Positions 3,001 to 26,797 of a DNA stretch of 32,000 bases are shown here, one piece after another (position 1 is the first letter of the stretch; each line of letters begins with the position of its first letter). The stretch is from contig DAHXMM010000020.1 in the NCBI GenBank assembly GCA_027371715.1, forward strand, positions 1 through 32,000. Direction: 5' to 3'. Source of the stretch: Elusimicrobiota bacterium (lineage in GTDB: Bacteria; Elusimicrobiota; Elusimicrobia; UBA1565; UBA9628). The position numbers and the translations under genes are program-made. The notes beneath the pieces were generated by a model. That model was not told the origin of the DNA. It did no database searches and saw only the letters and a list, made by a program, of their open reading frames with translations.

Positions 3001-4481
3001 CTTTCCCGGCTGATTCCGGCATTATTCCCATCACCAAGTCTCCGGATGTCTTGAGCGTATTTCCGACCAACCTTATCAACCCCGCCGGCGTCGTTCAAGG
3101 CCAAAACGCGCCGGCGACGGAACTCAGTCTGATCACCCAGCACAGTTCGGTGACCTGGACGACGATTGCCGTCCAAAGAAGCGGGACCTTGCCGGATTCG
3201 GGAGTTGATTCCGTCAATGTTTATTACGACGCCGATCAAAACGGGGTGTTTGATTCCTCGGACGTCTTGGTCGGAAGCGCGCCGTTTGTTTCCGGAACGG
3301 CTAACATTTCTTTTTCCACCGCTCAGCTGGTCAATCCCGGAGGTTCGGACTATTTCGTCACGCTTCAAATCGATCCGAACGCCACACCCGGAGATACCAT
3401 TGGAATTTCTCTCTCTGGAAATTCTAACTTTAAGGTTTTGCCTCCAGATACGGTTTCGGGATCGAGCCTTCCTTTTAATTCGGCCCTGGCGCCGGTCTTA
3501 AACATAAAAACTCCGATCACGCCCGTCGTCACATTCCCCAATGGAGATTTTTCCAGTTCCTTTGACTCCATCGGATTTATCTGGTATTCGACCGTCGCCG
3601 TCGGGTCTATTTCAAGCGCGGCCTATGCCGTAGGAACGACGCCCGGGGGAACCGATATTGCGCCCTACACCAATATCCCTTTCGCCGCTTCCAGCTTTAC
3701 CGCGGTCAATCTTCTGCTCAGTAACGGCGCGACCTATTACGTATCTGTCGAAGCGACGTCCAACTACGGTTTTACCAGTCCGCCGGGAACCAGCCCCGGG
3801 TTCCTGGTCGATTTGATTACGCCCATGCCGCCGAGTAGTTTGACGGCTAATGTCGGAGTCAGCTCGATTTATCTCACCTGGAATCCCGGCAGCGCGGGGC
3901 CCTCGGGACTCGCGGGATACCTGCTTGAATATTCCGATGTCGAACATCCGACCTGGTATAACGCGAAAACCGGAGCGGTCTCCGCCCTGGAGATGGGGAC
4001 TGTCCCTAACTCCGCCAGCCCGCATTCCGTCTTGTCGGCGAATTTTATTTCCGCTTCGCCGTTCTTGTTCAATAGCCCGCCGCAAGGAACTCTGATGTTC
4101 CGCGTCAGTTCAGTCAACGGCGCGGGGGTACAAAGCGCGCCTTCCGACACCATTCGCGTGCTTTTTGGGACGCAATCGACGGCGGGAATATCCAACGTTT
4201 CCTCCTATCCCAATCCCTTTAATTCTAATTCCGGCGTGGCCACCATCGTCTATACCTTGGACGCGCCGGGAAGCGTCTCGATTCAAATCTACAGCGTCTT
4301 TGGAAGTCTCGTCAAAAGTTTCTCTTATTCCGGTGGAGGCACGGGGGGAGAAGCCGGAGTCAACACCGTCACCTGGGATGGGACGGATTCCGGGGGCCGC
4401 AAAGTATCGAAGGGAATTTACATTGCCGTCCTTAAAGCCAACGGCATGAGCGTCCAATACAAGATCGGGGTCAATCACTGA
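3..4481 (+). CDS. Very large secreted/surface protein (5' end outside window): fibronectin-III-like domains, five repeated ~150-aa modules, C-terminal FlgD-Ig-like domain
   Basis: Listed ORF starts at an internal TTG (180), but the frame is open back to position 3 (GDHPTSIGSIYESPDGVNWNLVYATST...). C-terminus YPNPFNSNSGVATIVYTLDAPGSVSIQIYSVFGSLVKSF...GVNTVTWDGTDSGGRKVSKGIYIAVLKA resembles FlgD Ig-like/sorting-type domains; FnIII-like YYWRVRTVDGFGGTSPWS. Confidence 0.85.
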   Translation, partial: GDHPTSIGSIYESPDGVNWNLVYATSTDANFGALSDFNGQLYAGSVNGSIYQITPVAATLAGSDGTNAAEKLSATGLNLVQSTSTVTCGGVSPCGATDQIIFTASDLAGNVLESGPYAILVDTTVAPAISTPSYPSNGAYLNYQTNFSWIGPSTTVVSGLLPPSFYQLEVSNNDPTFATTFVNISTPIPPVNTGLATDNGAYISTYTFANLTTYYWRVRTVDGFGGTSPWSETFNFTTDFSSPTAVNGSFATLNSLGGLVPETQVTVLQNGVTAQLNITDIGSGFSAFNSTDYSVRYSTNAGAVWISDPFSALAFTGLIGQTSTQTFTAYGLNLAASTNSIVCAGISPCGASNQIEFTFSDQAGNFTTAGPYAIIVDTHSTDVLVSTADVAPLGIPQNTSVAFIRLTLNSLAGTAPWTGLTVERLGSGTDSDVQNVAIYRDSLGTGIFSPSDTQITQNAVFSGGVVNLTMTNPESITTSTKTYFVVYTAAAGALVGDGLQAEITSTASFTFNGGYAMSAAQTTIYPLISSTATVVDGPNYLYITPTSKAPSDDPPGTANIEMLALKAYTNTGTSTLSKIVFNLLGTGASNDISAISIYRDSNGTGVYANNDELVTSGSDAFLNGVSTVAFTTTIASETVTTSPIYYFVLISLSPNAPLGDTLGVSISTPSNVELIDVLDTTTFTSNPAASSLLTIEYVNTLNVQGASQIPPSLLQGQEYAVLKASFTVSTGETAFDGMDITRLGLGHDSDISAVRIWQDPNPPEAFNPATFLQLSSGSFVNGNAQLNFPLQTLSAGTTYVYYVTYDISPTATQGDTLGGRITSNLDISDTNPGTTIVGNFSINSATSPVVPTTAGLFVGAQNVAPSDLLQGATNQQMLNLTMDTTQYSVLLGALTFNSLGTAASSDISRVEVYQDLVGNGILNTTKDPLLSALSYPFISGTGIIPFSSGITISTISITLLVAVDVSTGANYINNDFGIGIATQANISINSPNFVVPSTTTFPADSGIIPITKSPDVLSVFPTNLINPAGVVQGQNAPATELSLITQHSSVTWTTIAVQRSGTLPDSGVDSVNVYYDADQNGVFDSSDVLVGSAPFVSGTANISFSTAQLVNPGGSDYFVTLQIDPNATPGDTIGISLSGNSNFKVLPPDTVSGSSLPFNSALAPVLNIKTPITPVVTFPNGDFSSSFDSIGFIWYSTVAVGSISSAAYAVGTTPGGTDIAPYTNIPFAASSFTAVNLLLSNGATYYVSVEATSNYGFTSPPGTSPGFLVDLITPMPPSSLTANVGVSSIYLTWNPGSAGPSGLAGYLLEYSDVEHPTWYNAKTGAVSALEMGTVPNSASPHSVLSANFISASPFLFNSPPQGTLMFRVSSVNGAGVQSAPSDTIRVLFGTQSTAGISNVSSYPNPFNSNSGVATIVYTLDAPGSVSIQIYSVFGSLVKSFSYSGGGTGGEAGVNTVTWDGTDSGGRKVSKGIYIAVLKANGMSVQYKIGVNH
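3996..4006. repeat. Dispersed palindrome GGGACTGTCCC (inside the large surface-protein CDS)
   Basis: gagatgGGGACTGTCCCtaactccgcc; read as EMGTVPNS. Confidence 0.9.
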
Positions 4482-5110
4482 CATGAAAAAAAAAGGGACA
4501 GTCCCTTTTTCGGCCGCCCCACATGAGAATCCAGCCCCATTTTCTTTCTTGTCTCCAGCTCACATCCATCATCCACGATATATTTGTAAATCTCCACTCT
4601 CTTTTGGGAAAAGTCAGCCAAAGACAAATAAGCGGGGCTCTCTTCCAAAAAAGGGGACTGTCCCTTTTCTCCCAAATAAAAGCGATAACTGGACCAAGAA
4701 TAATCTTCCGGTTTCCGCGCGATGGCCGCGCGCACGGGATTTAACTCGATATAGCGGCCGCAAAGAAGAAGACTTCGGTCCGTCGGCAATAAAACGCTTT
4801 TATAGCGCCCCTGCCAGAGATGCCCCACCGAGGAATTTTTCTCTCGGAAATAATCGGAATACCCCTGTAAAAGCTTTTGCATCGCCTTGCTCAGGTCTTC
4901 CGGCTTTTGAACCTGGACCAAGAGATGAATATGGTTGGGCATCAGAACATAATGATGGATCCGAAAAGGATTTTTCACCTTGCTCCACCGCAGAATGTCC
5001 AAAAATCTCTCATAATCGGCTGTTTCATGGAACACGGCTTGACGATTATTCCCGCGCGCCATCAAGTGGTAAAACCCTCCTTCAATCAAATGTCTCCCGC
5101 ATCTTGACAT
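4475..5110 (-). CDS. REP-associated tyrosine transposase (RAYT, Y1_Tnp/IS200-like family)
   Basis: HUH motif in HYVLMPNHIHLLVQV, downstream GYSDYFREKNSSVGHLWQGRYKSVLL and YIELNPVRAAIARKPEDYSWSSYRFYLG, characteristic of RAYTs. Confidence 0.92.
   Translation of the reverse strand: MSRCGRHLIEGGFYHLMARGNNRQAVFHETADYERFLDILRWSKVKNPFRIHHYVLMPNHIHLLVQVQKPEDLSKAMQKLLQGYSDYFREKNSSVGHLWQGRYKSVLLPTDRSLLLCGRYIELNPVRAAIARKPEDYSWSSYRFYLGEKGQSPFLEESPAYLSLADFSQKRVEIYKYIVDDGCELETRKKMGLDSHVGRPKKGLSLFFSCQ
4495..4505. repeat. GGGACAGTCCC, A/T-flanked copy (inside RAYT 3' end)
   Basis: aaaaaGGGACAGTCCCttttt. Confidence 0.9.
4654..4664. repeat. GGGACTGTCCC inside RAYT CDS
   Basis: aaaaaaggGGACTGTCCCtttt; RAYT residues EKGQSPFLEE. 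Confidence 0.9.
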
Positions 5111-5205: not shown

Positions 5206-6765
5206 TTGATTCTAAACAAAAAAGGGACAGTCCCTTTTTTCTTATTTCTACTTCTCTCCTCCATATCGGCATCGGCCGCGAGCTTCTATGCGGGTTCTCC
5301 CAACGAGATATTTCAATTCGGCGCGGATGCCAGGGCCATGGGCATGGGCAACGCCTACACCGCCATTGCCGGTGGAGCGTCTTCCCTTTATTACAACCCG
5401 GCGGGCCTCGGTCTTCTCAATGGCCCCGATGTCAGCGCCATGCAGGCCAGTCTTATTGGCGGCGCGGCCTATGAAGATTTATCCTACGCCCAAAATTTCT
5501 CAAAAATGCCGGGAGCTTGGGGCGTTGAAGCCCTCAATATGGGAGTGGGAGGGGCCGAGCAAAGAGACTCTCAAAATAATCTCACCGGAAGCTTTGGTTT
5601 TCAAGAAACCGGATACGGAGCGGGATTTGGCCTAAGGAATGTCGTCATTCCGAACTTATCCTTGGGAGGCTCTTTTCAGGGGCTCAGCCGAAGCTTGGGC
5701 GGTAGTTCTTCCGACATGCTCTATGGAGCGAATTTGGGAGCCCAGTACGGCCCCTTTTTGGACAATATGGTGACCGCGGGTTTGGTCCTCCAAAACGGTT
5801 TTAACGGAGCGCAAAATACCTTTGACCGGCTACCCACGGTTTTACGCGCAGGGCTCGCCGTCACTCCCATCAATAATCTTCTCATTTCCGCGGATTACGG
5901 CGATGATGGCGATTACGGAATCGGCGCGGAATATCGAATATGGATGTTCGCCATACGAGCCGGATATATCCCCCAAGGCCTCACCTTCGGCGCCGGAATC
6001 TATTATCAATCTCTGGAAGCCGATGTCGCGATGGTCAACGATCCAATTTTTGGAATGGGGGAGAGATTCTCGCTTAATTACCGATTCGCGGGAAAGAAGA
6101 AAGAAAAGCCTCTTGAAGCTTACACTAATAGTTATCTGGATGCCGCAAAAAAAGAATTAAGTCTCCGCAATTATCTCAGCGCGCAATTCGCGCTTGAAGA
6201 AGCGATGGGAGTCTCTCCCGCTCAGATTCCTCAGACATGGAAAGAAAAACTCAAACTTCTTCAAGCTTTTAATGGCAGCCTAGATCTCAAAAACCGTCCG
6301 GATGAGGTCAAAACTCTCCTTGCAAAAGATCAACCGGCCATACTCGCCCAAAAATCGGTTTTTTCTTATTTAAACGGACGCGACGGAGACGCCATGATTT
6401 GGGCGTCCGTGGCAGCCGGAACCGCTCATAAATCCATGCCCTATATTGACTTTGTCAAGACGATGGCTTATCTTACGAATATGAAGGTTTCGGAAGGGGA
6501 TTTATTGCCTCCACCAGATTATGTTTCCAAAAAAATGGAGACTGCTCTTCATGCTATTTATCAAAAGCGTTTTGCCAATGCGGTTAAAAATTGCCAACAG
6601 GCCATCGTGGTAAACCCGAAAGAGCCTTCTGCCTGGACGCGGCTGGGTAGCGCTTATTTTGCCTGGGGACATAAGGATGAAGCCAAAAAAGCCTATCAGA
6701 AAGCTTTAGAGCTTGATCCCAAGAACGAAAATTTAAAGAAATTTATGGAGATGTATATCAAATGA
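5206..6765 (+). CDS. PorV/PorQ (UPF0164)-like outer-membrane beta-barrel protein with C-terminal TPR repeats
   Basis: FYAGSPNEIFQFGADARAMGMGNAYTAIAGGASSLYYNPAGLGLLNGPDVSAMQASLI is typical of the PorV-like family; C-terminal EPSAWTRLGSAYFAWGHKDEAKKAYQKALELDPKNENLKKF is a TPR. The track ORF starts at 4483, but 4483-5205 is antisense to the RAYT. TTG 5206 gives MILNKKGTVPFFLFLLLSSISASA/ASF, a plausible signal peptide. Start uncertain. Confidence 0.8.
   Translation: MILNKKGTVPFFLFLLLSSISASAASFYAGSPNEIFQFGADARAMGMGNAYTAIAGGASSLYYNPAGLGLLNGPDVSAMQASLIGGAAYEDLSYAQNFSKMPGAWGVEALNMGVGGAEQRDSQNNLTGSFGFQETGYGAGFGLRNVVIPNLSLGGSFQGLSRSLGGSSSDMLYGANLGAQYGPFLDNMVTAGLVLQNGFNGAQNTFDRLPTVLRAGLAVTPINNLLISADYGDDGDYGIGAEYRIWMFAIRAGYIPQGLTFGAGIYYQSLEADVAMVNDPIFGMGERFSLNYRFAGKKKEKPLEAYTNSYLDAAKKELSLRNYLSAQFALEEAMGVSPAQIPQTWKEKLKLLQAFNGSLDLKNRPDEVKTLLAKDQPAILAQKSVFSYLNGRDGDAMIWASVAAGTAHKSMPYIDFVKTMAYLTNMKVSEGDLLPPPDYVSKKMETALHAIYQKRFANAVKNCQQAIVVNPKEPSAWTRLGSAYFAWGHKDEAKKAYQKALELDPKNENLKKFMEMYIK
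5224..5234. repeat. GGGACAGTCCC, A/T-flanked copy overlapping a predicted signal peptide
   Basis: AAAAAAGGGACAGTCCCTTTTTT perfect palindrome 5218-5240. Confidence 0.9.
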
Positions 6766-6900
6766 AAGAAACGGAAAGTAAAAGAAAGTTACGGAAAGAA
6801 AATGAAAGAAACAGAAAAAGGCCTTACCTTGCTCTTCGTTCCTTTCTGTTGCTTTCCGTTACTTGCCGTTGCTTTCCGTTTCTTGCCGTTGCTCGCCGTT
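6761..6900. repeat. Inverted pair of imperfect 20-bp tandem arrays (three purine-rich units, then three pyrimidine-rich units)
   Basis: 6761-6820: aatgaaagaaacggaaagta / aaagaaagttacggaaagaa / aatgaaagaaacagaaaaag. 6841-6900: cctttctgttgctttccgtt / acttgccgttgctttccgtt / tcttgccgttgctcgccgtt. The reverse complement of unit 1 shares CTTTCCGTTTCTT with 6872-6884. Confidence 0.75.
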
Positions 6901-6903
6901 GCT

Positions 6904-6908
6904 GGAGG
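6904..6908 (+). promoter_or_regulatory. Shine-Dalgarno GGAGG upstream of ATG 6914
   Basis: gctGGAGGttatcATG. Confidence 0.7.
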
Positions 6909-6913
6909 TTATC

Positions 6914-9430
6914 ATGGACATCTTAATGATCGTTTTTATTCCCAGTCTTTTTATCATCCTGGGAGCCCTAATGTTTATCGTCAGCCGGGTGATGGAATTC
7001 TCGCAATCCAATCGTTATTTCGCAAAACAAAGAGGAAACAGCCTTATGTTTACGCGTTTCATGACTCAAATTGCCATGGCCAAAAGCCAACTTGGAAAAA
7101 GAGCCCAGGAATTGGAAGCTCTGTCCATGCGCCTTCAAATGAATAACGAAGAACTTGCCCGGCTCAACAACCTCAAAATGAAATTCTTATCAATGGCGGT
7201 TCATGATATTCGAAATCCACTCACCGCTATTACCGGTTACAGCGACATTTTGTCTCGCAACAAAAATCTAGGACCCAAAGAGCAGGTTTTGTCAAAAATG
7301 ATTTTGACCGCGACCCGGCAAATCAACCATCTGATGGGAGATCTCACCGATCTCGCCGTCATCGAAGCGGGAAAATTTAAAATGGAAATGGCGCCCTTTG
7401 ATCTGGCCGGACTCATCCAGGAAGTAGGGGCCACTTTGACCCCGGGAGCCTCCAACAAAGGCGTCATTCTTTCTGTTCGAGAACCTCCGCCCGGAATTAT
7501 CATCACCGCCGACCGCTACCGCATTTGGCGCGTTTTGACGAATCTTTTGGGAAATGCCGTTAAATTTACCCCTTCTGGAGGACGCGTCGAACTCCGGGCC
7601 GAAGTCGCGGCGGGAATGGCCATGATTTCAGTCCAAGACAACGGCCCCGGGATTCACCCGACCGAACGGCGGAAAATTTTTGAAAAGTTCTACCAGTCAA
7701 AACACATCAAAGATGAAAAAGCCCGCAAGGGCGGCTGGGGATTGGGACTGGCCATCGCCCAAGAAATTGTTCAGTCCCACGGGGGAGAAATCGGAGTCGA
7801 CAGCCGTGGTCTCGGACACGGTTCTACTTTTTGGGTTCGCATTCCTCTTAAAGCCAAGCGCCCCATCCGCTCCAGCCCCATGCGTCTTGCGCTCGCTTTA
7901 ATCGGGTTTTTAGCGCTCTCTTTGGCGCCGAAAAAAACTCAGGCTCAAACTGTTCCCTTCCTTGAAAAATCAAAATTCGAAAAATCATTGGAAACCAAGG
8001 TGGACGGAGTCCTTCTCAATATCTTGGGGCCCAATCGAGCCAAAGTCATCATCAACGCGACCCTCAATTTCACAAAAACCGAAAGCTTTCAAACCGAAGG
8101 CGCCAGCATCACGACGACAAAAACCTCGGGGCTTCCGTATCTTTGGCAAGAACCCAGTAAAACGGCGCAACCCGAAGAGTTGCTACCGGGAGTGCCGCTT
8201 GATTCCGGCGGCCCGGCTCTTCCCACGCCGCCGCCATCCATCAAGGGCTATAAAAAAGAAGATTCCTTCCCCGCCGAATTTATCAAAAGATTAGACGTCA
8301 CTCTCATTTTGGATAATTCCGTCAAGGGAAACCGGAGCGCCGAAATCGGCAAAATTACGGCCGATCTTCTCAGTCTCAATCCTAAACGAGGAGATTCTCT
8401 GACCGTGGTCCACACCGAGTTTTCTCCGATCTGGAAAACCGTTTGGTACTCTCCGGAAACTGCCGGTATGCTTCTTAAATATATTTTAACCGGATTTCTC
8501 TTTTTTATGGCGCTCATCGTCATCGCCGTCGGATTTATCAAAATCGCCAACGCCATGCGCATGATGGCCAACGCACAATCCCAGCAAATCTCAATGGAAA
8601 TGAAGGGGCTTGATGGCGAGGGGGGAAATGGACCGGGCGGAGTTTTAGGACATAATACGCTCATGATTGGGGATCAGAAATCGGGAGAAAACGCCCCTGA
8701 AAACAAAAACGAACCGGTCATGTTTGACGTGCGAATGGACCAAGTAGAAACCCTGGCTCAAATGCTTCTCCCCGAACCACCTGAAAATGTCGCCATTGTT
8801 GCCTCGCGCTTGACTCCGGATGTTTCAAAAAGGCTCATCGACGCCCTCCCGCCGGAACTGGCGAGCGCGGTCGTCAGTCAACTCGCCCGCCCGCGCTTTA
8901 TCGATCCGGAAATTATCGTCAACTTAAAGGAAGAGTTAGAACGGCGTCTTTCCGGCGCGGTCGGAGGAGTGCATTATCTCGCGGAACTGATGTCGGCCGC
9001 CAGCCAAAAAAGGCGTCATGAAATGCTGGAAGCCGTTCGCTCTCAAAACCAAAACCTCGCCGAGGAACTCAGAAAACGAGTCTTTTTCATCGAGGATCTC
9101 TCAAAACTAACCCAACAAGAATGGTCGTATCTCTTGTCCTTGGTCACTTATCAAGAATGGAGCGCCGGTCTCCATGAGGGTCCCCAAGTCGTCGTTGAAG
9201 CCATCAAACAAAATGTCTCAGAAAAAGCCTGGGGGGTTCTCAGCGAGATGATTGAAGCGGCTTCTCCCACAACAGAACAAACAGAAACGGCGCAAGATAA
9301 AATCGGTCAAAGCGTCTCAGAACTCATCCGGGAACAAAGAATCAAAACCATTGCGCCGCAATTGGGACTTCAAATTCATGAATCTCCAGTTGAAGAAGAA
9401 AAAGGCGCGGAAAGTAGTAAGGGCTCGTGA
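6914..9430 (+). CDS. Histidine kinase (HisKA-HATPase_c) fused in frame to FliF C-terminal-like periplasmic domain, a TM helix and FliG-like M/C domains
   Basis: N-terminal TM MDILMIVFIPSLFIILGALMFIVSRV; H-box SMAVHDIRNPLTAITGYSDIL; N-box NLLGNAVKFTPSGG; G1 VQDNGPGI; G2 GGWGLGLAIAQEIV. Then TM/signal-like MRLALALIGFLALSLAP; FliF_C-like FEKSLETKVDGVLLNILGPNRAKVIINATLNF and IKRLDVTLILDNSV...AEIGKITADLLSLNPKRGDSLTVVHTEFSP; TM LLKYILTGFLFFMALIVIAVGFI; FliG-like ENVAIVASRLTPDVSKRLIDALPPELASAVVSQLA...GGVHYLAELMSAASQKRRHEMLEAVRSQNQNLAEELRKRVFFIEDLSKL...QNVSEKAWGVLSEMIE. The track start at 6863 precedes the better RBS-supported ATG at 6914. Confidence 0.85.
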   Translation: MDILMIVFIPSLFIILGALMFIVSRVMEFSQSNRYFAKQRGNSLMFTRFMTQIAMAKSQLGKRAQELEALSMRLQMNNEELARLNNLKMKFLSMAVHDIRNPLTAITGYSDILSRNKNLGPKEQVLSKMILTATRQINHLMGDLTDLAVIEAGKFKMEMAPFDLAGLIQEVGATLTPGASNKGVILSVREPPPGIIITADRYRIWRVLTNLLGNAVKFTPSGGRVELRAEVAAGMAMISVQDNGPGIHPTERRKIFEKFYQSKHIKDEKARKGGWGLGLAIAQEIVQSHGGEIGVDSRGLGHGSTFWVRIPLKAKRPIRSSPMRLALALIGFLALSLAPKKTQAQTVPFLEKSKFEKSLETKVDGVLLNILGPNRAKVIINATLNFTKTESFQTEGASITTTKTSGLPYLWQEPSKTAQPEELLPGVPLDSGGPALPTPPPSIKGYKKEDSFPAEFIKRLDVTLILDNSVKGNRSAEIGKITADLLSLNPKRGDSLTVVHTEFSPIWKTVWYSPETAGMLLKYILTGFLFFMALIVIAVGFIKIANAMRMMANAQSQQISMEMKGLDGEGGNGPGGVLGHNTLMIGDQKSGENAPENKNEPVMFDVRMDQVETLAQMLLPEPPENVAIVASRLTPDVSKRLIDALPPELASAVVSQLARPRFIDPEIIVNLKEELERRLSGAVGGVHYLAELMSAASQKRRHEMLEAVRSQNQNLAEELRKRVFFIEDLSKLTQQEWSYLLSLVTYQEWSAGLHEGPQVVVEAIKQNVSEKAWGVLSEMIEAASPTTEQTETAQDKIGQSVSELIREQRIKTIAPQLGLQIHESPVEEEKGAESSKGS

Positions 9431-9498
9431 CAAAATAATAACAGTCTCTATTTACTTCGTCATTTCTTCATGATTCAATACCATTTTTGTTCTATCCT

Positions 9499-10443
9499 AT
9501 GGGTATGGCTGAAAGTCCGAAAGGTTCCATCTTTTCCTCCTTAAGGGCGCTGGAAGAAATTCCGGAAGAAACTCCCGCCGCGCCTCCGACTTCGCAAAAC
9601 CCTTCACCCTCTCCCACCCCCGCCGCACAAACACCAACGCCCACGCCGCCACCTTCGCAAGCGCCTCCTCCATCAGATGAGACTTTGAAAGCCGTGGAGT
9701 CAAAAATCGAAAAGTTAGAACAAAAAATCCAGGAGATGGGGACAGTCCCCAATTCAGACCCTCATCTTAACCGTATTGAAGCCCTGGAGCAAAAATTGCA
9801 ACAAATGCAGGAACGCGCCATTCAGGCGGAGGTCGCTCTCAGAGAGCGCGAGAAATCCCAAGAAGCCGCCCGGCGCGAGACGGAATCTCTTCTTCAAAAT
9901 TTAGCGTCCCAGCGCCGGCTTGAAGAATCGGACCGGCAAATGAAGGAAAATCTGGCTTATTGCCGACGCCGAATCGAAGAATTGGAGGAAAAACAATCCT
10001 CTATTAAAATTCCGGATACCCAACAATCGGAAAATGAGTTTAAATCCCTCCTAAAAAGTTTTATGGAACAGATCGAGCTAAAAACAACTCCGGTTTTAGC
10101 GTCTCTTGTTGATCTCAGGAAAGAAAATGAAAACCGCGAAAAAGAAAATCGCGGCATGGAGCAAAGGATAAACGAGATTGAGAAAAATATCAATTCTTTT
10201 TTTTCGACAGAGTTAGGGCAAGCGAGCGCTCTAGCAGAAGGATTACGCCACCTAAAACAAACCGTGGAACGAGTCAACACGGAAACCGCGGAAAAACTCG
10301 AAAAAATAAGCGCCGCTCTAAGCCTATTAGAATTTAGGCATTCCCAAGCGAAAAACACAACAGAAGAATTACGCGCTCTCGATAAAGACTTTCAGAAAAT
10401 ACTCTCCATTCTCGATGCCAGCGTTTCCAACTCGCCCAAATAA
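9499..10443 (+). CDS. Pro-rich linker plus long coiled-coil protein, no recognised family
   Basis: PSPSPTPAAQTPTPTPPPSQAPPPS, then heptad-rich ETLKAVESKIEKLEQKIQE...; ATG 9499 preferred over TTG 9487. Confidence 0.75.
   Translation: MGMAESPKGSIFSSLRALEEIPEETPAAPPTSQNPSPSPTPAAQTPTPTPPPSQAPPPSDETLKAVESKIEKLEQKIQEMGTVPNSDPHLNRIEALEQKLQQMQERAIQAEVALREREKSQEAARRETESLLQNLASQRRLEESDRQMKENLAYCRRRIEELEEKQSSIKIPDTQQSENEFKSLLKSFMEQIELKTTPVLASLVDLRKENENREKENRGMEQRINEIEKNINSFFSTELGQASALAEGLRHLKQTVERVNTETAEKLEKISAALSLLEFRHSQAKNTTEELRALDKDFQKILSILDASVSNSPK
9739..9749. repeat. GGGACAGTCCC inside coiled-coil CDS
   Basis: TGGGGACAGTCCCCA 9737-9751; read as EMGTVPNS. Confidence 0.9.
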
Positions 10444-10444
10444 A

Positions 10445-10455
10445 GGGATAGTCCC
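10445..10455. repeat. Degenerate copy GGGATAGTCCC between coiled-coil gene and motA
   Basis: One mismatch; directly after stop codon TAA. Confidence 0.7.
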
Positions 10456-10500
10456 TATTAGTATTTGGAATTCTCTTTTCTTTCCTATATAATAAGCAAC

Positions 10501-11238
10501 ATGGAACTAACATCGATCATCGGTCTAGGGGCTATTCTAATTTTAACTGCGATTGGCCTTGCCACTGGAGGGCTTCCGGCGGTTTTCATCAACTGGCATG
10601 GAATTGGAATCGTGCTTGGGGGAACTTTTTGCGCCCTCATGATCAACACCCCACTGGATATTTTGCTCAGAACCGGATCGTCTGTGACCGATTTAATTTC
10701 GGCCGATCCTTATGTCGACCGGATCGCTCTTGTGGACGCCATCATGACACTAGCACAAGAGGTTCAATCCCGGGGAATTAACGCCTTTAACAATGTCAAT
10801 AAAACAGTGGCCGCCGGGTATCTCGCTTACGCCGCTCAAATCGCGGTTGAATATAACAACCCTGAAACCCTCCGACAGGTGCTGGAAAATGAGATCATTC
10901 AAAATTCCGATTTACAGAACGAAGCGGTCAACGTTTTTAGAACCGCCGGAATTTTGGCGCCGATGTTCGGACTTTTGGGAACCTTAATTGGAATTGTCGA
11001 GGTTCTGCGCCAAATCGCCAACCCCGCACAAGTGGGTTCCGCCATGGCGGTCGCCATTACGACCGCTTTTTATGGCATCGCGACCGCAAACGTTTTTTGC
11101 GTGCCGATAGCCGGTAAACTAAGAATTCGCTACTGGAGAGAAACGCAGGCCAAGACCATGATTTTGGAAGGCGTCTTTGAAATCCTCCAGCGAACGCCCG
11201 CCGTCATTATCTCGCGGAAACTGAAATCTTATCTATGA
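10501..11238 (+). CDS. motA: MotA-like stator proton/ion channel subunit (MotA/TolQ/ExbB superfamily)
   Basis: MELTSIIGLGAILILTAIGLATGGLPAVFINWHGIGIVLGGTFCALMINTP; AGILAPMFGLLGTLIGIVEVLRQIANPAQVGSAMAVAITTAFYGIATANVFCVPIAGKLRIR. Confidence 0.9.
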   Translation: MELTSIIGLGAILILTAIGLATGGLPAVFINWHGIGIVLGGTFCALMINTPLDILLRTGSSVTDLISADPYVDRIALVDAIMTLAQEVQSRGINAFNNVNKTVAAGYLAYAAQIAVEYNNPETLRQVLENEIIQNSDLQNEAVNVFRTAGILAPMFGLLGTLIGIVEVLRQIANPAQVGSAMAVAITTAFYGIATANVFCVPIAGKLRIRYWRETQAKTMILEGVFEILQRTPAVIISRKLKSYL

Positions 11239-11246
11239 ATGAATTG

Positions 11247-11257
11247 GGGACTGTCCC
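11247..11257. repeat. GGGACTGTCCC between motA and motB
   Basis: gaattgGGGACTGTCCCtaattatt. Confidence 0.9.
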
Positions 11258-11269
11258 TAATTATTAATT

Positions 11270-11962
11270 ATGAGACGCTCAAGGCACGAAGACCTCGAAA
11301 ATCAGCTTGCGAAATCCGCCCAATGGGCCATTACCTATGGGGATTTCATGAGTTATCTCATGATTTTCTTTCTCATCATGTTTTCTTTCACGCTTTCAAA
11401 ATCCGGAGGGAAAACTACGGAAAACGTTAAGTATCAGGAATCCCTCATTAAAATTCAGAAGGTCTTTGGCGGGAAGGGAAGCTCCGTGGATTATGATCGC
11501 CTGATTAAGCGCGAAAAAGAAGAGTCCATGGTCACCCAACTTAAACAAGCTCTTGATAAAAAGGATTTGTCAAAATACGCGAAAATAGAAACCTGGGATA
11601 AAAAAATTCGACTCATCTTAGCCAGCGCGGTTCTTTTTGACTCCGGCCGAGCAAGCTTAGCCCCGCGATCGGAAAAAATTTTAGCCGCCGTCGCCCAACA
11701 ACTTAAAACCTTGGACAACCCGATTCAAATTGAAGGGCATACCGATAACGTTCCTATTAACGGCGGACGCTATAAATCCAATTGGGAACTTTCAATGGCG
11801 CGCGCCTACTCAGTTCTCGTTTTTTTTGAGAAACAAGGCATCGCGCCTCAACGTTTGTCCGCCATCGGCTACGGCCAATATCACCCCATCGCCGACAACA
11901 AAACGCCGGAAGGACGCGCTAAAAATCGTAGAATCGAGATAGATTTATTACGGACGGAATGA
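11270..11962 (+). CDS. motB: MotB-like protein (MotB plug + OmpA peptidoglycan-binding domain)
   Basis: WAITYGDFMSYLMIFFLIMFSFTLSKSGG (single TM with conserved Asp) and IEGHTDNVPINGGRYKSNWELSMARAYSVLVFFEKQGIAPQRLSAIGYGQYHPIADNKTPEGRAKNRRIEI. Confidence 0.9.
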   Translation: MRRSRHEDLENQLAKSAQWAITYGDFMSYLMIFFLIMFSFTLSKSGGKTTENVKYQESLIKIQKVFGGKGSSVDYDRLIKREKEESMVTQLKQALDKKDLSKYAKIETWDKKIRLILASAVLFDSGRASLAPRSEKILAAVAQQLKTLDNPIQIEGHTDNVPINGGRYKSNWELSMARAYSVLVFFEKQGIAPQRLSAIGYGQYHPIADNKTPEGRAKNRRIEIDLLRTE

Positions 11963-11976
11963 AAGGGAGATCAAAA

Positions 11977-12999
11977 ATGAAAGAATTGTGGGCTATTCTC
12001 TGCACCATCCTAGTCTTGCCGGTCGCGGCTTTTTCAGCCGCCTCATCCGGAACGAATAATTCGAACACTGCCCCTTATCAAGGAGCCACGGCGCCGCATC
12101 CAAAACTTCCGCAAGATCCTTATCTCACGGCCCTTGACGACATCAAAAGCCCGATTCCCTCGGTTCGTTTGGCGGCAGTTCAAGTTTTAGCTCAAAACCG
12201 TAATCCTGCCTCCATCGCGCCTCTGACCCAAGCCCTTTCCGATAAAAACCCGGCGGTCTGCGCCGCCGCCATTCACGCCTTGGGTCTTTTAAGGGTTAAG
12301 GCCGTAGCTCCAAAAATCGCGCAACTTTTAGCCACCTCCCAAGCTTCCCAAGTCAGGCAAAACGCCGCCGTCGCCTTGGCTTATCTGGCCGATCCGGCGG
12401 CCATCCCCACCTTAATTTCCGCTATTTCCGATTCTCATCGAAGCGTTCGCTATGCGGCAATTAAAACCTTGGGCAGTCTCCACGCCCAGGCTGCATTACC
12501 GGCCCTCATTAACACGCTTAAAAGTTCAAACGCTAATATCCGAGAGACCGCCGCTGCGGCCCTGGGGCAAATTCAATCTCCAAAAGCCTCATCCGCCCTT
12601 GCCGCTTTAACGACCGACCCCAACATCCAAGTTCGAGAGGCCGCCGTCATCGCGCTTGGTTCAACCGGAGGCAAGACCGCCATCTCGCCCCTCCTCAAAG
12701 CGCTTAAGGATTCGAATTTTTCCGTCAGTCTTGATGCGGCCCGCTCTCTTTCAAAACTGGGAAATTTTAAGGGAAAAAGCGTCGCGCTCAAGGGATTGAG
12801 CCAAAAAAACTCCTTTCTCAGGCAAGAAGCCGTCACGGTTTTAGGAATGACCGGAGGGAAAAAAGCTCTCCTTGCGCTTGAAAAACTTTCTAAAAAAGAA
12901 AAAGATCCCGCGACGATTAGCCTCATTGGTTTTGCCGAAGCCCAAATCAAGGGACGCCTTGGAATAAGACCCACGCCTCCTCAATCGCGCAAAAAATGA
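11977..12999 (+). CDS. Exported HEAT-repeat protein
   Basis: Signal peptide MKELWAILCTILVLPVAAFSAA; tandem HEAT units (PSVRLAAVQVLAQ..., SQVRQNAAVALAYLAD..., RSVRYAAIKTLGSLH..., IQVREAAVIALGSTG...). ATG 11977 with upstream GGGAG. Confidence 0.85.
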   Translation: MKELWAILCTILVLPVAAFSAASSGTNNSNTAPYQGATAPHPKLPQDPYLTALDDIKSPIPSVRLAAVQVLAQNRNPASIAPLTQALSDKNPAVCAAAIHALGLLRVKAVAPKIAQLLATSQASQVRQNAAVALAYLADPAAIPTLISAISDSHRSVRYAAIKTLGSLHAQAALPALINTLKSSNANIRETAAAALGQIQSPKASSALAALTTDPNIQVREAAVIALGSTGGKTAISPLLKALKDSNFSVSLDAARSLSKLGNFKGKSVALKGLSQKNSFLRQEAVTVLGMTGGKKALLALEKLSKKEKDPATISLIGFAEAQIKGRLGIRPTPPQSRKK

Positions 13000-15011
13000 G
13001 ACGCCTCTTCGGCCTTTTCTTTTCGCTGGCCTTAAGTTTTCTTTTTATCTTTCTTTATCGGCCAGCCATATTTGAACTCCAAGCCAACGATGTCTTTAAT
13101 AATCTGGAAAACTCTTGGCAGGATTTTCTTTTTCGCGTCAATAGAAATCACCTAAAGCACGGAGACCCTCGCATCATCATCGCGGCCATTGATGATCCCA
13201 CCCTTCATCAATACGGATACCCGCTTCCTAGAATAATTTATGCGAAGCTCTTAGATCGTCTTCACGAGTTAAAAGTCAAGACCGTGGCCTTCGACGTCCT
13301 TTTCGCGGACCCCCGAAAAGGAGATTCTGATTTAGCGCGCGCTCTAGGGAAATTTAATAAAAGCGTTCTCGCCTATGCTTATGATCAAAACAGTTCCGAA
13401 CATTTCGTTTTGCCCACGCGCCCGCTCTATCAAGCCGCAAAAAGACTTGGGTATGTCAATGTGGGAAATTGCATAGATCCTGATGGGCATATCCGAGAAT
13501 TTCAAATTTTTCAGTCTTCTTTTAAAAACCCAAAAACAAATTCGATGGGAGAAGCTCTCTCGGTTCCGACGCTCGCCTATTTTACAGGGCAACTCTTTGA
13601 AAAGACCACCGGCCTCGGCCCAACCGACGCGCATTTCTACATTAATTTTAGGCCGCCTACTTATGCCAACGATCAAGACGTGCTGTTCTCTTATCCCGTT
13701 TTTTCCATCGCCAAGATTTTAAGCAAAAACCTTCCGCAAAAAGAGAAAGATGCTTTAAAAGGAGCCTTAGTTCTTGTCGGCTCAACCGCCCTTTCCGCTT
13801 TCGATCATTATCCCTCGCCCTTTAGCGATGCCAGTCCCGGAGTCGAATATCACGCTAACATTCTGGACAATCTTCTTCATCGCAACTGGATGCGCCCCTT
13901 TTCGCCTTTTTATCAGATATTCATCATACTTTTGTTTATCTGGCTTCCCTTTTTTCTGAGACGCGCGCCGACGCAGTGGGAAACGTTTTCGGTTTTTGGG
14001 GTTTTCTTGGCCTGGCTTTGTTTTTGCGAATGGCAATTTTTGAAAGGAGTTCGCGTGGAATTCGTCCTACCCTCTGCCGCTCTTTTGACGTCTTTTGTCG
14101 GCGAAACTATCCATCAAGCCTTGACCGAGGGGCGGGAGAAAAAATTCATCAAGAACTTATTTACTCAATTTGTCTCTCCCGAAGTGGTTGAGGACCTCGC
14201 CAAAAACCCTGACAAAATTAAACTGGGGGGAGAAAAAAAAGACATGACGGTTCTTTTTTTGGACATCGCCCATTTTACCAGCATCTCAGAAAAAATGTCG
14301 CCGGAAGAACTCATCAAGTTTCTCAATCTCTATCTCTCGCGTTTGAGCCAAGTCATTTACGATTACGGCGGGGTCGTTGATAAATATATTGGAGACTCCA
14401 TCATGGCTTTTTGGAACGCTCCATTAGAAGTAAAATCCCATCGCATGAAGGCCTGCCTTGCGGCGTTATCCCTTCAAGACGCCGTTTTAGAACTCAACAA
14501 AAATCTGCCTTCAAGCATCCCACATCCACCTCAAGTGAGAATTGGAATCAATTCCGGCATTGTCACCGTGGGCCTTACTGGAAGCGAACATAAACTTCAA
14601 TATACCGTGATCGGAGATGAAGTTAATTTAGCCTCTCGCCTTGAAGGGGCCAATAAGTTTTTTAAATCGCAGACCATGATCAGCGAAGCCGTTTACGCCG
14701 AAGCCAAAGCGGAAATAGAGGCTCGGGAAATCGGGATTATCCGCGTTCTTGGGAAAGAAACCCCCATCAAGACTTATCAGATTCTGGCTCGAAAAGGAGC
14801 GCTTTCCCGCTCCTGGAAAACAGCCCTTCCGATTTACAATCAAGCGCTTCAAGACGTACGAAACAAGGAATACGTCAATGCCATCCATCTTTTTGAAACT
14901 TTCCTTAAAATTATTCCCAATGACGGAACCGCCTCATTTTATCTCTCCGCTTGTAAAAAAGCCCAAGAGAGCACTCCATGGGATGGAATTATTCATCTGA
15001 CCTCTAAATAA
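12996..15011 (+). CDS. CHASE2-sensor class III adenylate/guanylate cyclase with C-terminal TPR
   Basis: Periplasmic CHASE2-like IIIAAIDDPTLHQYG.PLPRIIYAKLLDRLHELKVKTVAFDVLFADP; cyclase MTVLFLDIAHFTSISEKMSPEELIKFLNLYLSRLSQVIYDYGGVVDKYIGDSIMAFWNAP; GDEVNLASRLEG. Overlaps the HEAT gene stop (ATGA). Confidence 0.92.
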   Translation: MRRLFGLFFSLALSFLFIFLYRPAIFELQANDVFNNLENSWQDFLFRVNRNHLKHGDPRIIIAAIDDPTLHQYGYPLPRIIYAKLLDRLHELKVKTVAFDVLFADPRKGDSDLARALGKFNKSVLAYAYDQNSSEHFVLPTRPLYQAAKRLGYVNVGNCIDPDGHIREFQIFQSSFKNPKTNSMGEALSVPTLAYFTGQLFEKTTGLGPTDAHFYINFRPPTYANDQDVLFSYPVFSIAKILSKNLPQKEKDALKGALVLVGSTALSAFDHYPSPFSDASPGVEYHANILDNLLHRNWMRPFSPFYQIFIILLFIWLPFFLRRAPTQWETFSVFGVFLAWLCFCEWQFLKGVRVEFVLPSAALLTSFVGETIHQALTEGREKKFIKNLFTQFVSPEVVEDLAKNPDKIKLGGEKKDMTVLFLDIAHFTSISEKMSPEELIKFLNLYLSRLSQVIYDYGGVVDKYIGDSIMAFWNAPLEVKSHRMKACLAALSLQDAVLELNKNLPSSIPHPPQVRIGINSGIVTVGLTGSEHKLQYTVIGDEVNLASRLEGANKFFKSQTMISEAVYAEAKAEIEAREIGIIRVLGKETPIKTYQILARKGALSRSWKTALPIYNQALQDVRNKEYVNAIHLFETFLKIIPNDGTASFYLSACKKAQESTPWDGIIHLTSK

Positions 15012-15018: not shown

Positions 15019-15732
15019 ATGATTATATTCTGGCGCTTATTATTCGGGCATTTACTGGCGGATTTTACGCTCCAAACCAACGCCGTCAATCGTTGGAAAA
15101 GAAAAAATATTTTTGGGATGTTGTTTCATTGCGCCATGCACCCCGTTCTCTATGCGCTTTTGACCTATCCCTATCTCTCCCGTCCTTGGATTGAATGGAA
15201 AAGTTTTAGTTTGAATGGATGGGCCTGCATCCTCATCCTCTTCTTAGTTCATTGGATTGAGGATGAATGGCGGGTTTTTACTATTTTTAAATACCATACG
15301 CCCGACAATACGCTTTACTTTCTTTGGGATCAAGTCATTCACATCGCGCTTATTTTTGCGGTAGCGCCTCTTTTGGCCTTTTCCAACCCTTCCCAAGGGC
15401 TTATCCCCGAGAAATGGCCCGTCTTGGGATGCCTTTTTGTCCTCGCAACCCATTTCAGCGCCATTCTGATTTATTTTATCGAGCAAGACATTTTTGGCAA
15501 GCCTTTTCCAGGAACTTTCAAGAAATACGCGCTCATGGCTGAACGCCTGGGACTGGCCCTCTGTTTTCTCGCGCCCATTCATTTATGCTCCGTTTTAGTC
15601 TTGGCGTGGATTGGAATCATGACTTCACTCCGGTTTAAGAAACAAAATGAGTTTTCCTGGACCAGCTTCTTCATTGGTGCTCCTCTCGCCGGGCTTTGCG
15701 GTTTTCTCTCCAGAATCTTGTATTATCAATAG
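15019..15732 (+). CDS. DUF3307-like inner membrane protein
   Basis: LLFGHLLADFTLQTNAVNRWKRKN...LFHCAMHPVLYALLTYP, typical of DUF3307. Confidence 0.7.
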   Translation: MIIFWRLLFGHLLADFTLQTNAVNRWKRKNIFGMLFHCAMHPVLYALLTYPYLSRPWIEWKSFSLNGWACILILFLVHWIEDEWRVFTIFKYHTPDNTLYFLWDQVIHIALIFAVAPLLAFSNPSQGLIPEKWPVLGCLFVLATHFSAILIYFIEQDIFGKPFPGTFKKYALMAERLGLALCFLAPIHLCSVLVLAWIGIMTSLRFKKQNEFSWTSFFIGAPLAGLCGFLSRILYYQ

Positions 15733-15735
15733 ATA

Positions 15736-15812
15736 GGGACTGTGCCTCTTCTTCATAATTCTTAAGGGCGGCACTGTCCCGACCTTAAGGTTCTAAGGAA
15801 AGGGACAGTCCC
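15736..15812. repeat. Cluster of three copies: GGGACTGTGCC (15736), GGCACTGTCCC (15770), GGGACAGTCCC (15802)
   Basis: Direct reading of the DUF3307-thiolase intergenic region. Confidence 0.8.
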
Positions 15813-15836
15813 TAATTATTTAAAGGAGGCATTTGT

Positions 15837-18459: not shown

Positions 18460-18490
18460 CAAAGCCCTTAAACTTCTCTAAGATAAAACC

Positions 18491-19165: not shown

Positions 19166-19170
19166 AAAAT

Positions 19171-19242
19171 TGGGCCGTAGAGGATTTGAACCTCTGACAT
19201 CTGTCGTGTGAGGACAGCGCTCTACCGCTGAGCTAACGGCCC
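19171..19242 (-). tRNA. tRNA-Val (anticodon CAC), no encoded CCA
   Basis: Reverse complement folds as GGGCCGT TA GCTC AGCGGTA GAGC G CTGTC CTCACAC GACAG ATGTC AGAGG TTCAAAT CCTCT ACGGCCC A; 7-bp acceptor, anticodon loop CT-CAC-AC. Confidence 0.95.
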
Positions 19243-19268
19243 GACTTTTTGATTTTACAAAATAATTA

Positions 19269-19279
19269 GGGACTGTCCC
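19269..19279. repeat. GGGACTGTCCC between tRNA-Val and FAH gene
   Basis: TTAGGGACTGTCCCTAA 19266-19282, perfect palindrome around a single central T. Confidence 0.9.
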
Positions 19280-19290
19280 TAACTCTGATC

Positions 19291-21529: not shown

Positions 21530-21533
21530 CTCC

Positions 21534-22142: not shown

Positions 22143-22157
22143 AGAGAGGGCATTGCT

Positions 22158-26788: not shown

Positions 26789-26797
26789 TTGAGCACC

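Follow-up and report, generated by a model that had tools for sequence, protein, structure and literature searches.

What purpose do the rotor and stator proteins of a flagellar motor serve when their genes stand together without those of a flagellum? The question is raised by a stretch of 32,000 nucleotides from an Elusimicrobiota bacterium (positions 1 to 32,000 of contig DAHXMM010000020.1, assembly GCA_027371715.1; hereafter the window), in which four genes of the same direction at 6914–11962 (+) encode a kinase–FliF–FliG fusion, a coiled-coil protein, MotA and MotB. An earlier note on this DNA had described these genes as adjacent and co-directional, and positions, strand and Pfam domains all agree with that description; it had also remarked on missing rod, hook, filament, export and FliM/N genes, and none occurs among the large open reading frames (ORFs) of the window annotated with Pfam and NCBIfam. 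To our knowledge, FliG together with flagellar-class MotAB stators is regarded as specific to the flagellum. The answer given here, towards which the evidence inclines us somewhat more than away from it, is that the cluster encodes an ion-driven rotor–stator which is derived from the flagellum, works independently of it and acts through an outer-membrane (OM) barrel on surface proteins under two-component control.

The existence of such genes has been noticed before. Cultured Elusimicrobiota are non-motile, and most free-living members of the phylum are without flagellar structural genes yet carry motAB, flbD and fliG, the role of which has been called "unclear" and "enigmatic", the motility of magnetotactic Elusimicrobiota being treated as an open question (Uzun et al., 10.1101/2022.07.08.499144). 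A "clear absence of … flagellar genes" has likewise been stated for Elusimicrobia (PMC7031533). The motAB, flbD and fliG triple matches exactly the content of the loci termed clade B below. The gene architecture and its partners are previously undescribed in the searchable literature: a literature search for FliG with PorV or the type IX secretion system (T9SS) in Elusimicrobia yielded no description of such a system, motility is not discussed in the Elusimicrobia survey of Méheust et al., and Elusimicrobia are mentioned neither in a preprint on the flagellum of the last bacterial common ancestor (LBCA) nor in the stator survey PMC12505986.

Parts of the rotor and stator

The rotor gene (6914–9430, +) encodes an 838-aa fusion in which a first transmembrane helix (TM1), a cytoplasmic histidine kinase (HK), TM2, a FliF RBM3/β-collar module, TM3, a linker, FliG_M and FliG_C follow one another, as read from Pfam, an AlphaFold2 (AF2) model, Foldseek and the alignment of homologues. 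The start was placed at the ATG at 6914 from that alignment, homologues beginning with "MD/ME-ILMIVF"; the mechanical ORF opens at 6863. Pfam finds HisKA (7175–7372; 5.9e-13, 49.1 bits) and HATPase_c (7511–7852; 4e-27, 95.3 bits) in the kinase core (7175–7852), a weak match to YscJ_FliF_C that lies above threshold (1.5e-5, 25.9 bits against a cutoff of 23.8), and, within the FliG part (8747–9343), both FliG_M (8747–8959; 4.7e-11, 43.2 bits, cutoff 25) and FliG_C (9032–9343; 1e-12, 48.7 bits, cutoff 23.3). The FliG part also aligns to T. maritima FliG-MC (1lkv) with E=1.2e-20 and to 4fhr at about 1e-20.

The AF2 model, which covers residues 340–855 and was built from a 16-sequence alignment, has a mean predicted local distance difference test (pLDDT) score of 73 and of about 90 in the FliG part. 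Its first element is a TM helix resembling a signal peptide; next come the periplasmic domain, another, long TM helix, some 45 disordered linker residues and the FliG armadillo helices. The periplasmic ring-building module (7952–8416), held between two TM helices, has the topology α-β-β-(long disordered loop)-β-β-α-β, and in Foldseek comparison with the PDB it matches the FliF RBM3/β-collar S-ring (6sd1_A, E=1.5e-6, TMt 0.56) together with 7cg7_A, 8ftf_A and the Vibrio structure 8z4d_1 (E 1e-5 to 1e-6, TMt 0.5–0.56), SpoIIIAG, PrgK and EscJ being much weaker matches. The disordered collar loop bears a near-invariant LLPG(V/F)P, with P103 and G104 invariant in the family alignment. For the FliG part, Foldseek returns FliG-MC at 1e-10 and the FliG chain of a MotAB–FliG complex (8ucs_H) with a TMt of 0.78.

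Flagellar FliF surrounds the export gate with its RBM1 and RBM2 domains and is linked to FliG by a rigid FliF_C/FliG_N joint, FliG_N co-folding with the FliF C-terminus. Neither RBM1 nor RBM2 was found in the fusion, the periplasmic segment of which has only ~170 residues, contains a single RBM in the model and gave no further Pfam or Foldseek matches. "FliF" here is therefore the outermost ring-building module alone, and the name under which the earlier note had listed this domain is apt for RBM3 and the β-collar only. FliG_N was not found either: its Pfam match of 22.4 bits (cutoff 25) falls over the M domain, and the model passes from TM3 through the disordered linker to FliG_M. The covalent FliF–FliG fusion takes the place of the FliF/FliG_N joint. 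FliG retains the GG linker (LSGAVGG) and an MFxF-like hinge (RVFFIEDL, with E-D invariant), both conserved in the family, and its torque helix in the window reads NVSEKAWGVLSEMIE. The FliM-binding EHPQR motif of FliG_M is not kept, the window having E-P-P-E-N and the family E-D-P-A-N in its place, so that only E and P are retained.

The kinase portion has all of its sequence boxes in the window, namely the H-box histidine ('AVHDIRNPL') and the N, G1, F and G2 boxes, and no sensor domain was found in it by Pfam or in the sequence of the fusion. TM2, which follows the kinase, resembles a signal peptide and ends in a conserved AxA↓Q motif (T359-Q360-A361↓Q362 of the 855-aa ORF, window 7937–7951) that is shared by the fused forms and by the unfused type II proteins described below, where it is N-terminal. 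Because this signal-peptidase-like site is conserved, signal peptidase may cut the fusion into a kinase and a rotor.

MotA (10501–11238, +; 245 aa) is a stator A subunit of the flagellar, PomA/MotC-like type according to Pfam, NCBIfam and alignment to solved stators. It matches MotA_ExbB at 1.6e-22, aligns end to end (residues 13–257) with C. sporogenes MotA (8ucs, 2.8e-26) and PomA (8bri, 1e-23), and keeps the equivalents of P173 and P222 within 'APMFG' and 'VPIAGK'. Its NCBIfam scores are 144 bits for PRK09109, 125 for PomA, 121 for MotA and 115 for MotP, and a Tol/Exb-type motor was rejected on the same scale, TolQ reaching 27 and ExbB 16 bits against 115–144 for the flagellar stator models. 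No NCBIfam equivalog cutoff for a named flagellar stator is reached by MotA, the best match, PRK09109, standing at 144 against 237 bits. MotB (11270–11962, +; 230 aa) is built of a plug (MotB_plug 1.2e-9, 38.1 bits), a single TM helix with the channel aspartate (D25, nt 11342–11344) and an OmpA-like peptidoglycan-binding domain (OmpA 4.7e-22, 78.6 bits); 40/40 family members have the channel Asp, and the TM helix hardly varies among them. Its closest NCBIfam model is MotD (3.4e-52), with 177.6 bits against an equivalog cutoff of 283 that is not reached. Stators have been sorted into flagellar ("FIT") and non-flagellar ones, the former marked by a plug, an OmpA-like domain and an extensive interface on the cytoplasmic side (PMC12505986). 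Compared with that class, MotB of the window has the plug and OmpA-like domain by sequence, and MotA is aligned over the full PomA/MotA length. Judged from their sequences, the parts are members of the FliG, FliF (RBM3 only), MotA and MotB families, and divergent ones that score below thresholds and fail several flagellum-specific features.

Conserved gene order and outer-membrane partners

A word-indexed search with the FliF–FliG part gave 33 homologues, the organism-named ones all from Elusimicrobia or Elusimicrobiota metagenome-assembled genomes (MAGs), in two forms, kinase-fused with ~830 aa and unfused with ~510 aa. Scanning one genome per bacterial and archaeal species of GTDB gave 58 loci (numbered L005–L062). 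Their MAGs all bear the label Elusimicrobia, Elusimicrobiota, Elusimicrobiales or Elusimicrobiaceae, or just 'bacterium', and several of these MAGs carry two loci. The recurrence of the module in 58 independent loci is far beyond chance. Gene orders, obtained by phmmer of the window proteins against all ORFs of the loci, fall into two types. Type I, found in the window, L003, L005–L009 and L012, runs from a giant protein through a barrel–tetratricopeptide repeat (TPR) protein, HK::FliF::FliG and the coiled coil to MotA and MotB; type II, found in most Elusimicrobiales, runs from the barrel-TPR protein through HK, MotA, FliF::FliG and one or two coiled-coil genes to MotB. Among loci with enough flanking sequence for each component to be counted, barrel-TPR is present in 42/43, HK in 48/51, MotA in 31/33 and MotB in 31/34, and conservation across relatives, which the earlier note had named as a test of its proposal, is thus borne out. 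Some loci without MotAB are second copies in MAGs the other locus of which has them (L066 with L010, L053 with L036); L024 and L041, the two loci of this census that lack MotAB, are each the sole locus recovered from their MAG. As an observation apart, L034 has two tandem FliF–FliG genes (5714–7417 and 9050–10906).

The cluster is under strong purifying selection. The ratios of nonsynonymous to synonymous substitution (dN/dS; Nei–Gojobori, window against its three closest relatives) are 0.04–0.05 for the fusion, 0.03–0.06 for MotA, 0.03 for MotB and 0.05–0.07 for barrel-TPR, hence 0.03–0.07 over these four; the coiled-coil gene evolves faster than the other cluster genes (0.15–0.19).

An exhaustive hidden Markov model (HMM) search with an RBM3–TM–FliG_MC profile against 1.84 billion cluster representatives returned 254 representatives at E≤1e-30, and the best 150 of the 254 are mostly full-length, single-stretch matches in proteins of 480–700 aa. 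BLAST clustering separates the window's clade (clade A), a second clade, of 36 members, in which the protein is extended by a C-terminal TPR (clade B) and about ten small clades. Taxon labels in clade B are limited to '[bacterium]' or 'subsurface metagenome', and its loci L065, L069 and L070, which are without a kinase, have a giant protein (>3,500 aa) followed by a UPF0164/PorV-like-TPR protein, FliF-FliG-TPR and a protein whose N-terminus is Pro-rich and whose coiled coil is E/K-rich. FlbD (PF06289), MotA and MotB come next in L069 and L070, where the flbD genes (16386–16598 in L069, 15885–16112 in L070) immediately precede motA–motB. No FlbD was found in the window or clade A (phmmer on six-frame ORFs), nor does any of the 58 scan loci have one. 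The other divergent loci repeat the pattern with different partners: L066 has a CHU_C protein, PorP/SprF-TPR, a HAMP-HK and FliF-FliG; L067 a TPR protein, FliF-FliG, MotA, MotB and two FlgD_ig-CTD proteins (CTD, C-terminal domain), one of them an S8 peptidase; L068 a FlgD_ig protein, FadL-like-TPR, FliF-FliG, MotA and a LysM protein; and L064 has PorV genes and CTD cargo nearby. Two side observations belong here: the LysM-domain protein of L068 (5271–5792) stands at the place expected for MotB, and a Roadblock/LC7 (MglB-like) gene (15798–16145) lies two genes downstream of the rotor gene in L064. The repetition of these contexts in divergent clades defines a universal core, which is a barrel::TPR protein of the PorV/PorQ/PorP/FadL kind, FliF(RBM3)::FliG and a coiled-coil protein; MotAB are nearly always present, and kinases, receivers and CTD-bearing surface proteins are frequent.

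The most constant of the partners is the barrel-TPR gene, which lies directly upstream in 42/43 loci. In the window it occupies 5206–6765 (+), with a TTG start at 5206 inferred from the signal peptide MILNKKGTVPFFLFLLLSSISASAA, and encodes a 14-strand OM β-barrel of the FadL/PorV superfamily joined to a periplasmic TPR solenoid, as seen by NCBIfam, Pfam, AF2 and Foldseek. The barrel matches the NCBIfam PorV/PorQ family NF033709 (2.5e-20) with 73.3 bits, below the cutoff of 90, and PorV2 and PorQ models as well; Pfam adds TPR_1 (2.6e-14) and Toluene_X (FadL, 0.005), and the TPR part gives weak GltE and Tgl matches. In the AF2 model (pLDDT 88) the 14 strands are followed by a TPR solenoid of 12 helices, and the nearest solved folds for the barrel in Foldseek are TodX (5e-8) and FadL (9e-8), a fold class to which we take PorV to belong. 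Homologues carry precomputed PF19572 (PorV) and PF03687 annotations and some relatives PF11751 (PorP_SprF), the PorP/SprF-TPR protein of L066 standing in place of the usual barrel-TPR.

Upstream of the barrel-TPR gene lies the end of a gene for a giant surface protein (3–4481, +), the frame of which is open from base 3 to the window start and encodes the C-terminal 1,490 or more aa. It contains Ig/fn3-like repeats (Pfam fn3) and FlgD_ig (1.7e-6), and ends in a T9SS type-A sorting or FlgD-Ig-like CTD (about 4239–4439), which reaches 26.5 bits against a cutoff of 23 for TIGR04183 Por_Secre_tail and is matched by PorU and PorZ C-terminal regions too. Orthologues of 3,500–6,600 aa hold the same position in L003, L005–L007, L012, L054, L065 and L069, and proteins with CHU_C, Por_Secre_tail or FlgD_ig flank L064, L066, L067 and L068. 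Neither the annotated large ORFs of the window nor the neighbourhoods with Pfam annotation include GldL/PorL–GldM/PorM, GldK/N or SprA/Sov. The barrel-TPR partner and the T9SS-type CTD cargo had been overlooked at first reading, and the extent of 6914–11962 then proposed, although its genes are real, is too narrow: the functional unit includes the gene for barrel-TPR as well (from about 5206 to 6765), and the giant CTD protein (from the window start up to 4481) probably belongs to it too.

In the window's clade two further genes belong to the unit, one for a secreted HEAT-repeat protein with a signal peptide (11959–12999, +; HEAT_2 1.4e-58) and one for a CHASE2 sensor joined to a class III adenylate/guanylate cyclase (12996–15011, +; CHASE2 4e-42, Guanylate_cyc 6.4e-24). 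Each overlaps the preceding stop codon by 4 nt, the pair thus being translationally coupled to motB, and beyond the window both are confined to its closest relatives, L005 and L006, which suggests a clade-specific signalling branch using cyclic nucleotide monophosphates (cNMP). The cyclase of the window also gives generic matches to PycC of the Pycsar system.

The coiled-coil partner (9487–10443, +; 318 aa) is a cytoplasmic protein. No family was assigned to it by Pfam, NCBIfam or PADLOC, which returned only generic SMC/Rad50/JetC coiled-coil noise. Its N-terminal peptide GSIFSSL is joined by a Pro-rich linker to a long coiled coil. Such a gene always lies 3' of the rotor gene and encodes 290–630 aa, at times as two tandem paralogues. 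All clade-A members have an N-terminal (K/G)DS[ILV]F[SA]x[ILV] peptide, a Pro/Ala-rich linker and a long coiled coil, and can be defined by the N-terminal SxF(S/A)x(I/L) motif alone, which is read as a putative docking motif; the clade-B counterpart has a Pro-rich N-terminus and an E/K-rich coiled coil in 517–1,302 aa.

Signalling genes accompany the module in several layouts. Most relatives encode the HK separately, in a gene for 312 aa beside the rotor gene, and stand-alone CheY-like receiver genes adjoin about 25 related loci: about 13 have a PAS-kinase and two or three receivers upstream of the barrel gene, four have one receiver between barrel and kinase, and three type I loci (L003, L009, L012) have one right after motB. 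OmpR-type regulators adjoin L003, L064, L066 and L067. The nearest receiver in the window (26411–26788, −; 125 aa) is 14 kb away. It lies directly downstream of genes for a PIN–PhoH ATPase and a radical-SAM/HTH protein, the three together spanning 26411–29226 (−), and resembles the post-motB receivers of L003, L009 and L012 only at the general family level.

Proposed mechanism and alternatives

The homology and folds of the parts, their co-conservation, the purifying selection acting on them, the invariant MotB aspartate and the correlated change in MotA and FliG set out below are the observations from which an envelope motor can be drawn. In such a machine, RBM3 would let the fusion protein assemble in the inner membrane as a ring like the S-ring, and peptidoglycan-anchored MotA5B2 units would conduct ions through the invariant MotB Asp, turning or pushing the FliG_C domains that hang beneath the ring. 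The LLPGxP loop of the periplasmic collar would engage the TPR domain of the OM barrel, and the barrel would hold the CTD of giant surface proteins as PorV, PorQ and PorP do in type IX systems, ion flow at the inner membrane thereby causing surface adhesins to be moved, exported or tensioned. The neighbouring kinase, with the CheY-like receivers, would either control the motor or read out its activity. The output would presumably be movement, export or tension of a gliding- or T9SS-like kind.

A further-reaching version, possible and offered tentatively, would make the system a third kind of ion-driven, envelope-spanning rotary machine beside the flagellum and GldLM/T9SS, in which MotAB spin a minimal FliF(RBM3)–FliG ring, the collar drives the PorV-like barrel via its TPR domain, giant CTD adhesins are translocated or moved and the rotor-attached kinase controls the process, conferring a gliding-type motility on non-flagellated Elusimicrobia, magnetotactic ones included. 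If the proposed motor is real, the flagellar rotor–stator would be reusable as a general-purpose envelope motor; it would offer structural and biophysical work on torque generation a natural "minimal rotor" without export apparatus or switch, and would be a candidate for how non-flagellated Elusimicrobiota, including the magnetotactic ones, move or handle giant adhesins.

Residues at the rotor–stator contact were compared in alignments of 47 MotA and 57 FliF–FliG sequences (window regions 10765–10830 for MotA and 9180–9260 for FliG_C), with positions given in E. coli numbering. Type II MotA has at the R90 equivalent 38 R and 2 K, and Lys followed by Asp/Glu at 98/99 in 40/40; in the type II FliG torque helix, 44/48 have K/R at the equivalent of R281 and 46/48 a Glu just ahead of the position equivalent to D288, other K/R residues being conserved as well. 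In the window clade, MotA has Q/H at the equivalent of R90, Q/N/R at that of 98 and N/E at that of 99, and the FliG helix shows K/G and S-E/Q and carries V/A in place of the type II K/R; FliG of the window itself has R281→K and D288→E. The charges are gone from the MotA loop and the FliG torque helix together in the window clade (the type I loci), and type II keeps a modified pattern. A concerted change of this sort is expected of two contacting surfaces, and it may be taken as weak evidence of rotor–stator contact, weak because it represents a single evolutionary event.

Several points weigh against the proposed motor, the first of them arising from these same residues. MotA of the window has Q at the R90 equivalent and N at the E98 equivalent, and FliG has K264→H, D289→M and R297→T; with the charges lost, the window's motor, which would presumably generate torque, cannot use the textbook electrostatic pairs. 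The model tethers FliG_MC to the ring through the disordered ~45-residue linker, with pLDDT <50. By similarity, the giant CTD protein is adjacent in 5/31 clade-A loci only, and neither a T9SS translocon nor GldKLMN was seen in any locus. The contacts between TPR domain and collar and between barrel and CTD are proposed from synteny, and ring formation, rotation and coupling to the OM barrel are predicted. Finally, complete flagella are encoded in the phylum, if in "only a few" Elusimicrobiota genomes (10.1101/2022.07.08.499144).

A sensor would be less affected than a motor by the loss of torque charges, and the assembly might instead be a mechanosensory or energy-sensing device, in which stator engagement, load or proton motive force (PMF) alters the ring and gates the kinase, the signal passing to CheY-like or OmpR-type regulators and the CHASE2 cyclase complementing the output in the window clade. 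Such a device would account for a kinase that has no sensor of its own and is fused to the rotor in the window clade and adjacent to it elsewhere (48/51), for the frequency of stand-alone receivers and OmpR-type regulators as neighbours and for the sensor cyclase with which the window operon ends, and the rotor-fused kinase does suggest a direct route from motor state to phosphorelay signalling. We nonetheless hold it to be rather unlikely as the function of the whole, since it leaves unexplained the near-universal barrel-TPR protein (42/43) and the CTD-bearing giant proteins, and since clade B (L065, L069, L070) keeps rotor and coiled coil without a kinase, retaining FlbD–MotAB too as seen in L069 and L070. 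The absence of a kinase from the clade B loci marks it as an add-on and not as part of the core.

With a barrel-TPR gene tightly coupled to the rotor gene, with FadL and TodX, channels for hydrophobic substrates, as the best structural matches of the barrel and with secreted, CTD-bearing S8 peptidases beside some loci, the system might be a Ton/Tol-like energiser that powers hydrophobic uptake, or the export or insertion of CTD proteins, through or at a FadL/PorV-type barrel, adhesins not being moved. This appears quite unlikely to us: in sequence the barrel is nearer to PorV/PorQ (2.5e-20) than to FadL (Toluene_X 0.005), known OM energisers have Exb/Tol-type motors with TonB/TolA-like rods and not FliG, and no translocon was found in the loci.

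That the locus is part of a canonical flagellum, or the decaying remnant of one, is highly improbable, although its components are clearly flagellum-derived and clade B retains the flbD–motA–motB order of flagellar operons. This order occurs in the flagellar operons of spirochaetes and Firmicutes. Without RBM1/2, FliG_N and an intact EHPQ motif, the fusion could host neither an export gate nor an FliM/N switch. No other flagellar gene lies among the large ORFs of the window, and no further one was found among the annotated genes of twelve Pfam-annotated neighbourhoods except FlbD in clade B. Complete flagellar gene sets do occur in a few Elusimicrobiota (10.1101/2022.07.08.499144), but structural genes are reported absent from most of the phylum (10.1101/2022.07.08.499144, PMC7031533). 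Decay in particular was rejected in view of dN/dS values of 0.03–0.07 and conservation in 58 species-level loci. The earlier suggestion of a non-flagellar use for a membrane-anchored FliG with its own MotA and MotB gains support from the gene order, from the same dN/dS values and from the loss of RBM1/2, FliG_N and EHPQ.

A Zorya-like anti-phage system on a MotAB-type motor is barely credible and was rejected together with other defence systems, given that the MotB matches to ZorB profiles (3e-22) and cyclase matches to PycC profiles reflect generic MotB and class-III-cyclase similarity, that MotA has no ZorA match, that ZorC/D and effector genes are missing and that the locus is a stable, vertically conserved chromosomal module rather than a variable defence island.

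Window surroundings and known systems

The rest of the large ORFs in the window serve metabolism or housekeeping (thiolase, aromatic amino-acid lyase, fumarylacetoacetate (FAA) hydrolase, HgmA-like, ValRS, PIN-PhoH, radical SAM and arginine decarboxylase). Among these, 15837–22907 forms a cluster for aromatic amino-acid breakdown with a thiolase, a member of the histidine/phenylalanine ammonia-lyase family, the fumarylacetoacetate hydrolase, a flavin reductase and weakly recognised homogentisate dioxygenase-like and 4-hydroxyphenylpyruvate dioxygenase (4HPPD)-like proteins, broken by a small MS-channel-TM protein and a tRNA-Val(CAC) (19171–19242, −). The only RNA match in an Rfam scan of the window was a tRNA. 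An 11-nt palindrome, GGGACWGTCCC, often placed within a longer A-rich/T-rich hairpin, occurs in 16 copies against 0.34 expected in the window (3996, 4495, 4654, 5187, 5224, 9739, 10445, 11247, 15549–15812, 19269, 21516, 24559 and 31258). Most copies lie in the intergenic gaps of the operon; intragenic ones encode 'GTVP' in the giant protein, the coiled-coil protein and ValRS, and one overlaps the stretch predicted to encode the barrel-TPR signal peptide. Between the giant-protein and barrel-TPR genes, a gene for a REP-associated tyrosine transposase (RAYT; REP, repetitive extragenic palindromic) lies on the opposite strand (4475–5110, −), and promoter and terminator scans of the window were uninformative except for exposing the REP palindromes.

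Set against known systems, the module is a flagellar rotor–stator that has been stripped down and re-wired. With the flagellar motor core it shares the homologous RBM3/β-collar, FliG_M/FliG_C with GG linker and MFxF-like hinge, a flagellar-class MotA, a MotB with plug, Asp and OmpA domain and, in clade B, FlbD. It differs in that RBM1/2 and FliG_N are absent, that no FliM/FliN, export apparatus, rod, hook or filament is seen in the loci, that FliF and FliG form one polypeptide with a flexible linker, that the classical charge pairs are shifted in type II and gone from the window clade and that its genetic partners are an OM barrel-TPR protein, a kinase and a coiled-coil protein.

Engineered Salmonella and Vibrio fusions likewise unite FliF and FliG in one chain, and according to PMC10941966 and PMC11481574 a Vibrio FliF–FliG fusion forms MS-rings and was the source of the solved S-ring structure. 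Those fusions are full-length and laboratory-made, whereas the one described here is natural, consists of RBM3 and FliG_MC only and is non-flagellar. The motAB, flbD and fliG of Uzun et al. (10.1101/2022.07.08.499144) are almost certainly the same genes as those described here; that study gives KEGG counts only, without the RBM3 fusion, the kinase fusion, synteny, the link to barrel-TPR and CTD proteins or the coiled-coil partner, and it reads FlbD as a transcriptional activator, whereas the FlbD found here is the small PF06289 protein.

Among machines that move surface structures, the Agl–Glt gliding complex of Myxococcus resembles the module in its PMF motor, its TPR proteins and its OM β-barrels that jointly move surface adhesion sites, and the weak GltE and Tgl matches of the TPR part and the MglB-like gene near L064 may be added to these likenesses. 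It has neither FliG nor FliF and its core parts are not homologous, AglRQS being TolQR-type motors ('GIT' in PMC12505986). The gliding and T9SS apparatus of Bacteroidota is, by analogy, most likely the closest functional counterpart, though with a different motor: there, too, an ion-driven inner-membrane motor is encoded with barrels of the PorV/PorQ/PorP family and giant surface proteins, the SprB-type adhesins, carry T9SS-type CTDs. The GldK/N ring, the SprA/Sov translocon and the PorU sortase are found in none of the loci; in place of GldL5M2 stand MotAB and a predicted FliF/FliG ring, the barrel is fused to a TPR domain and the phylum is Elusimicrobia. The conserved system keeps only the torque-generating interface of the flagellum, that is, the S-ring module, FliG_MC, MotAB and sometimes FlbD, and would have it wired to OM parts like those of type IX secretion.

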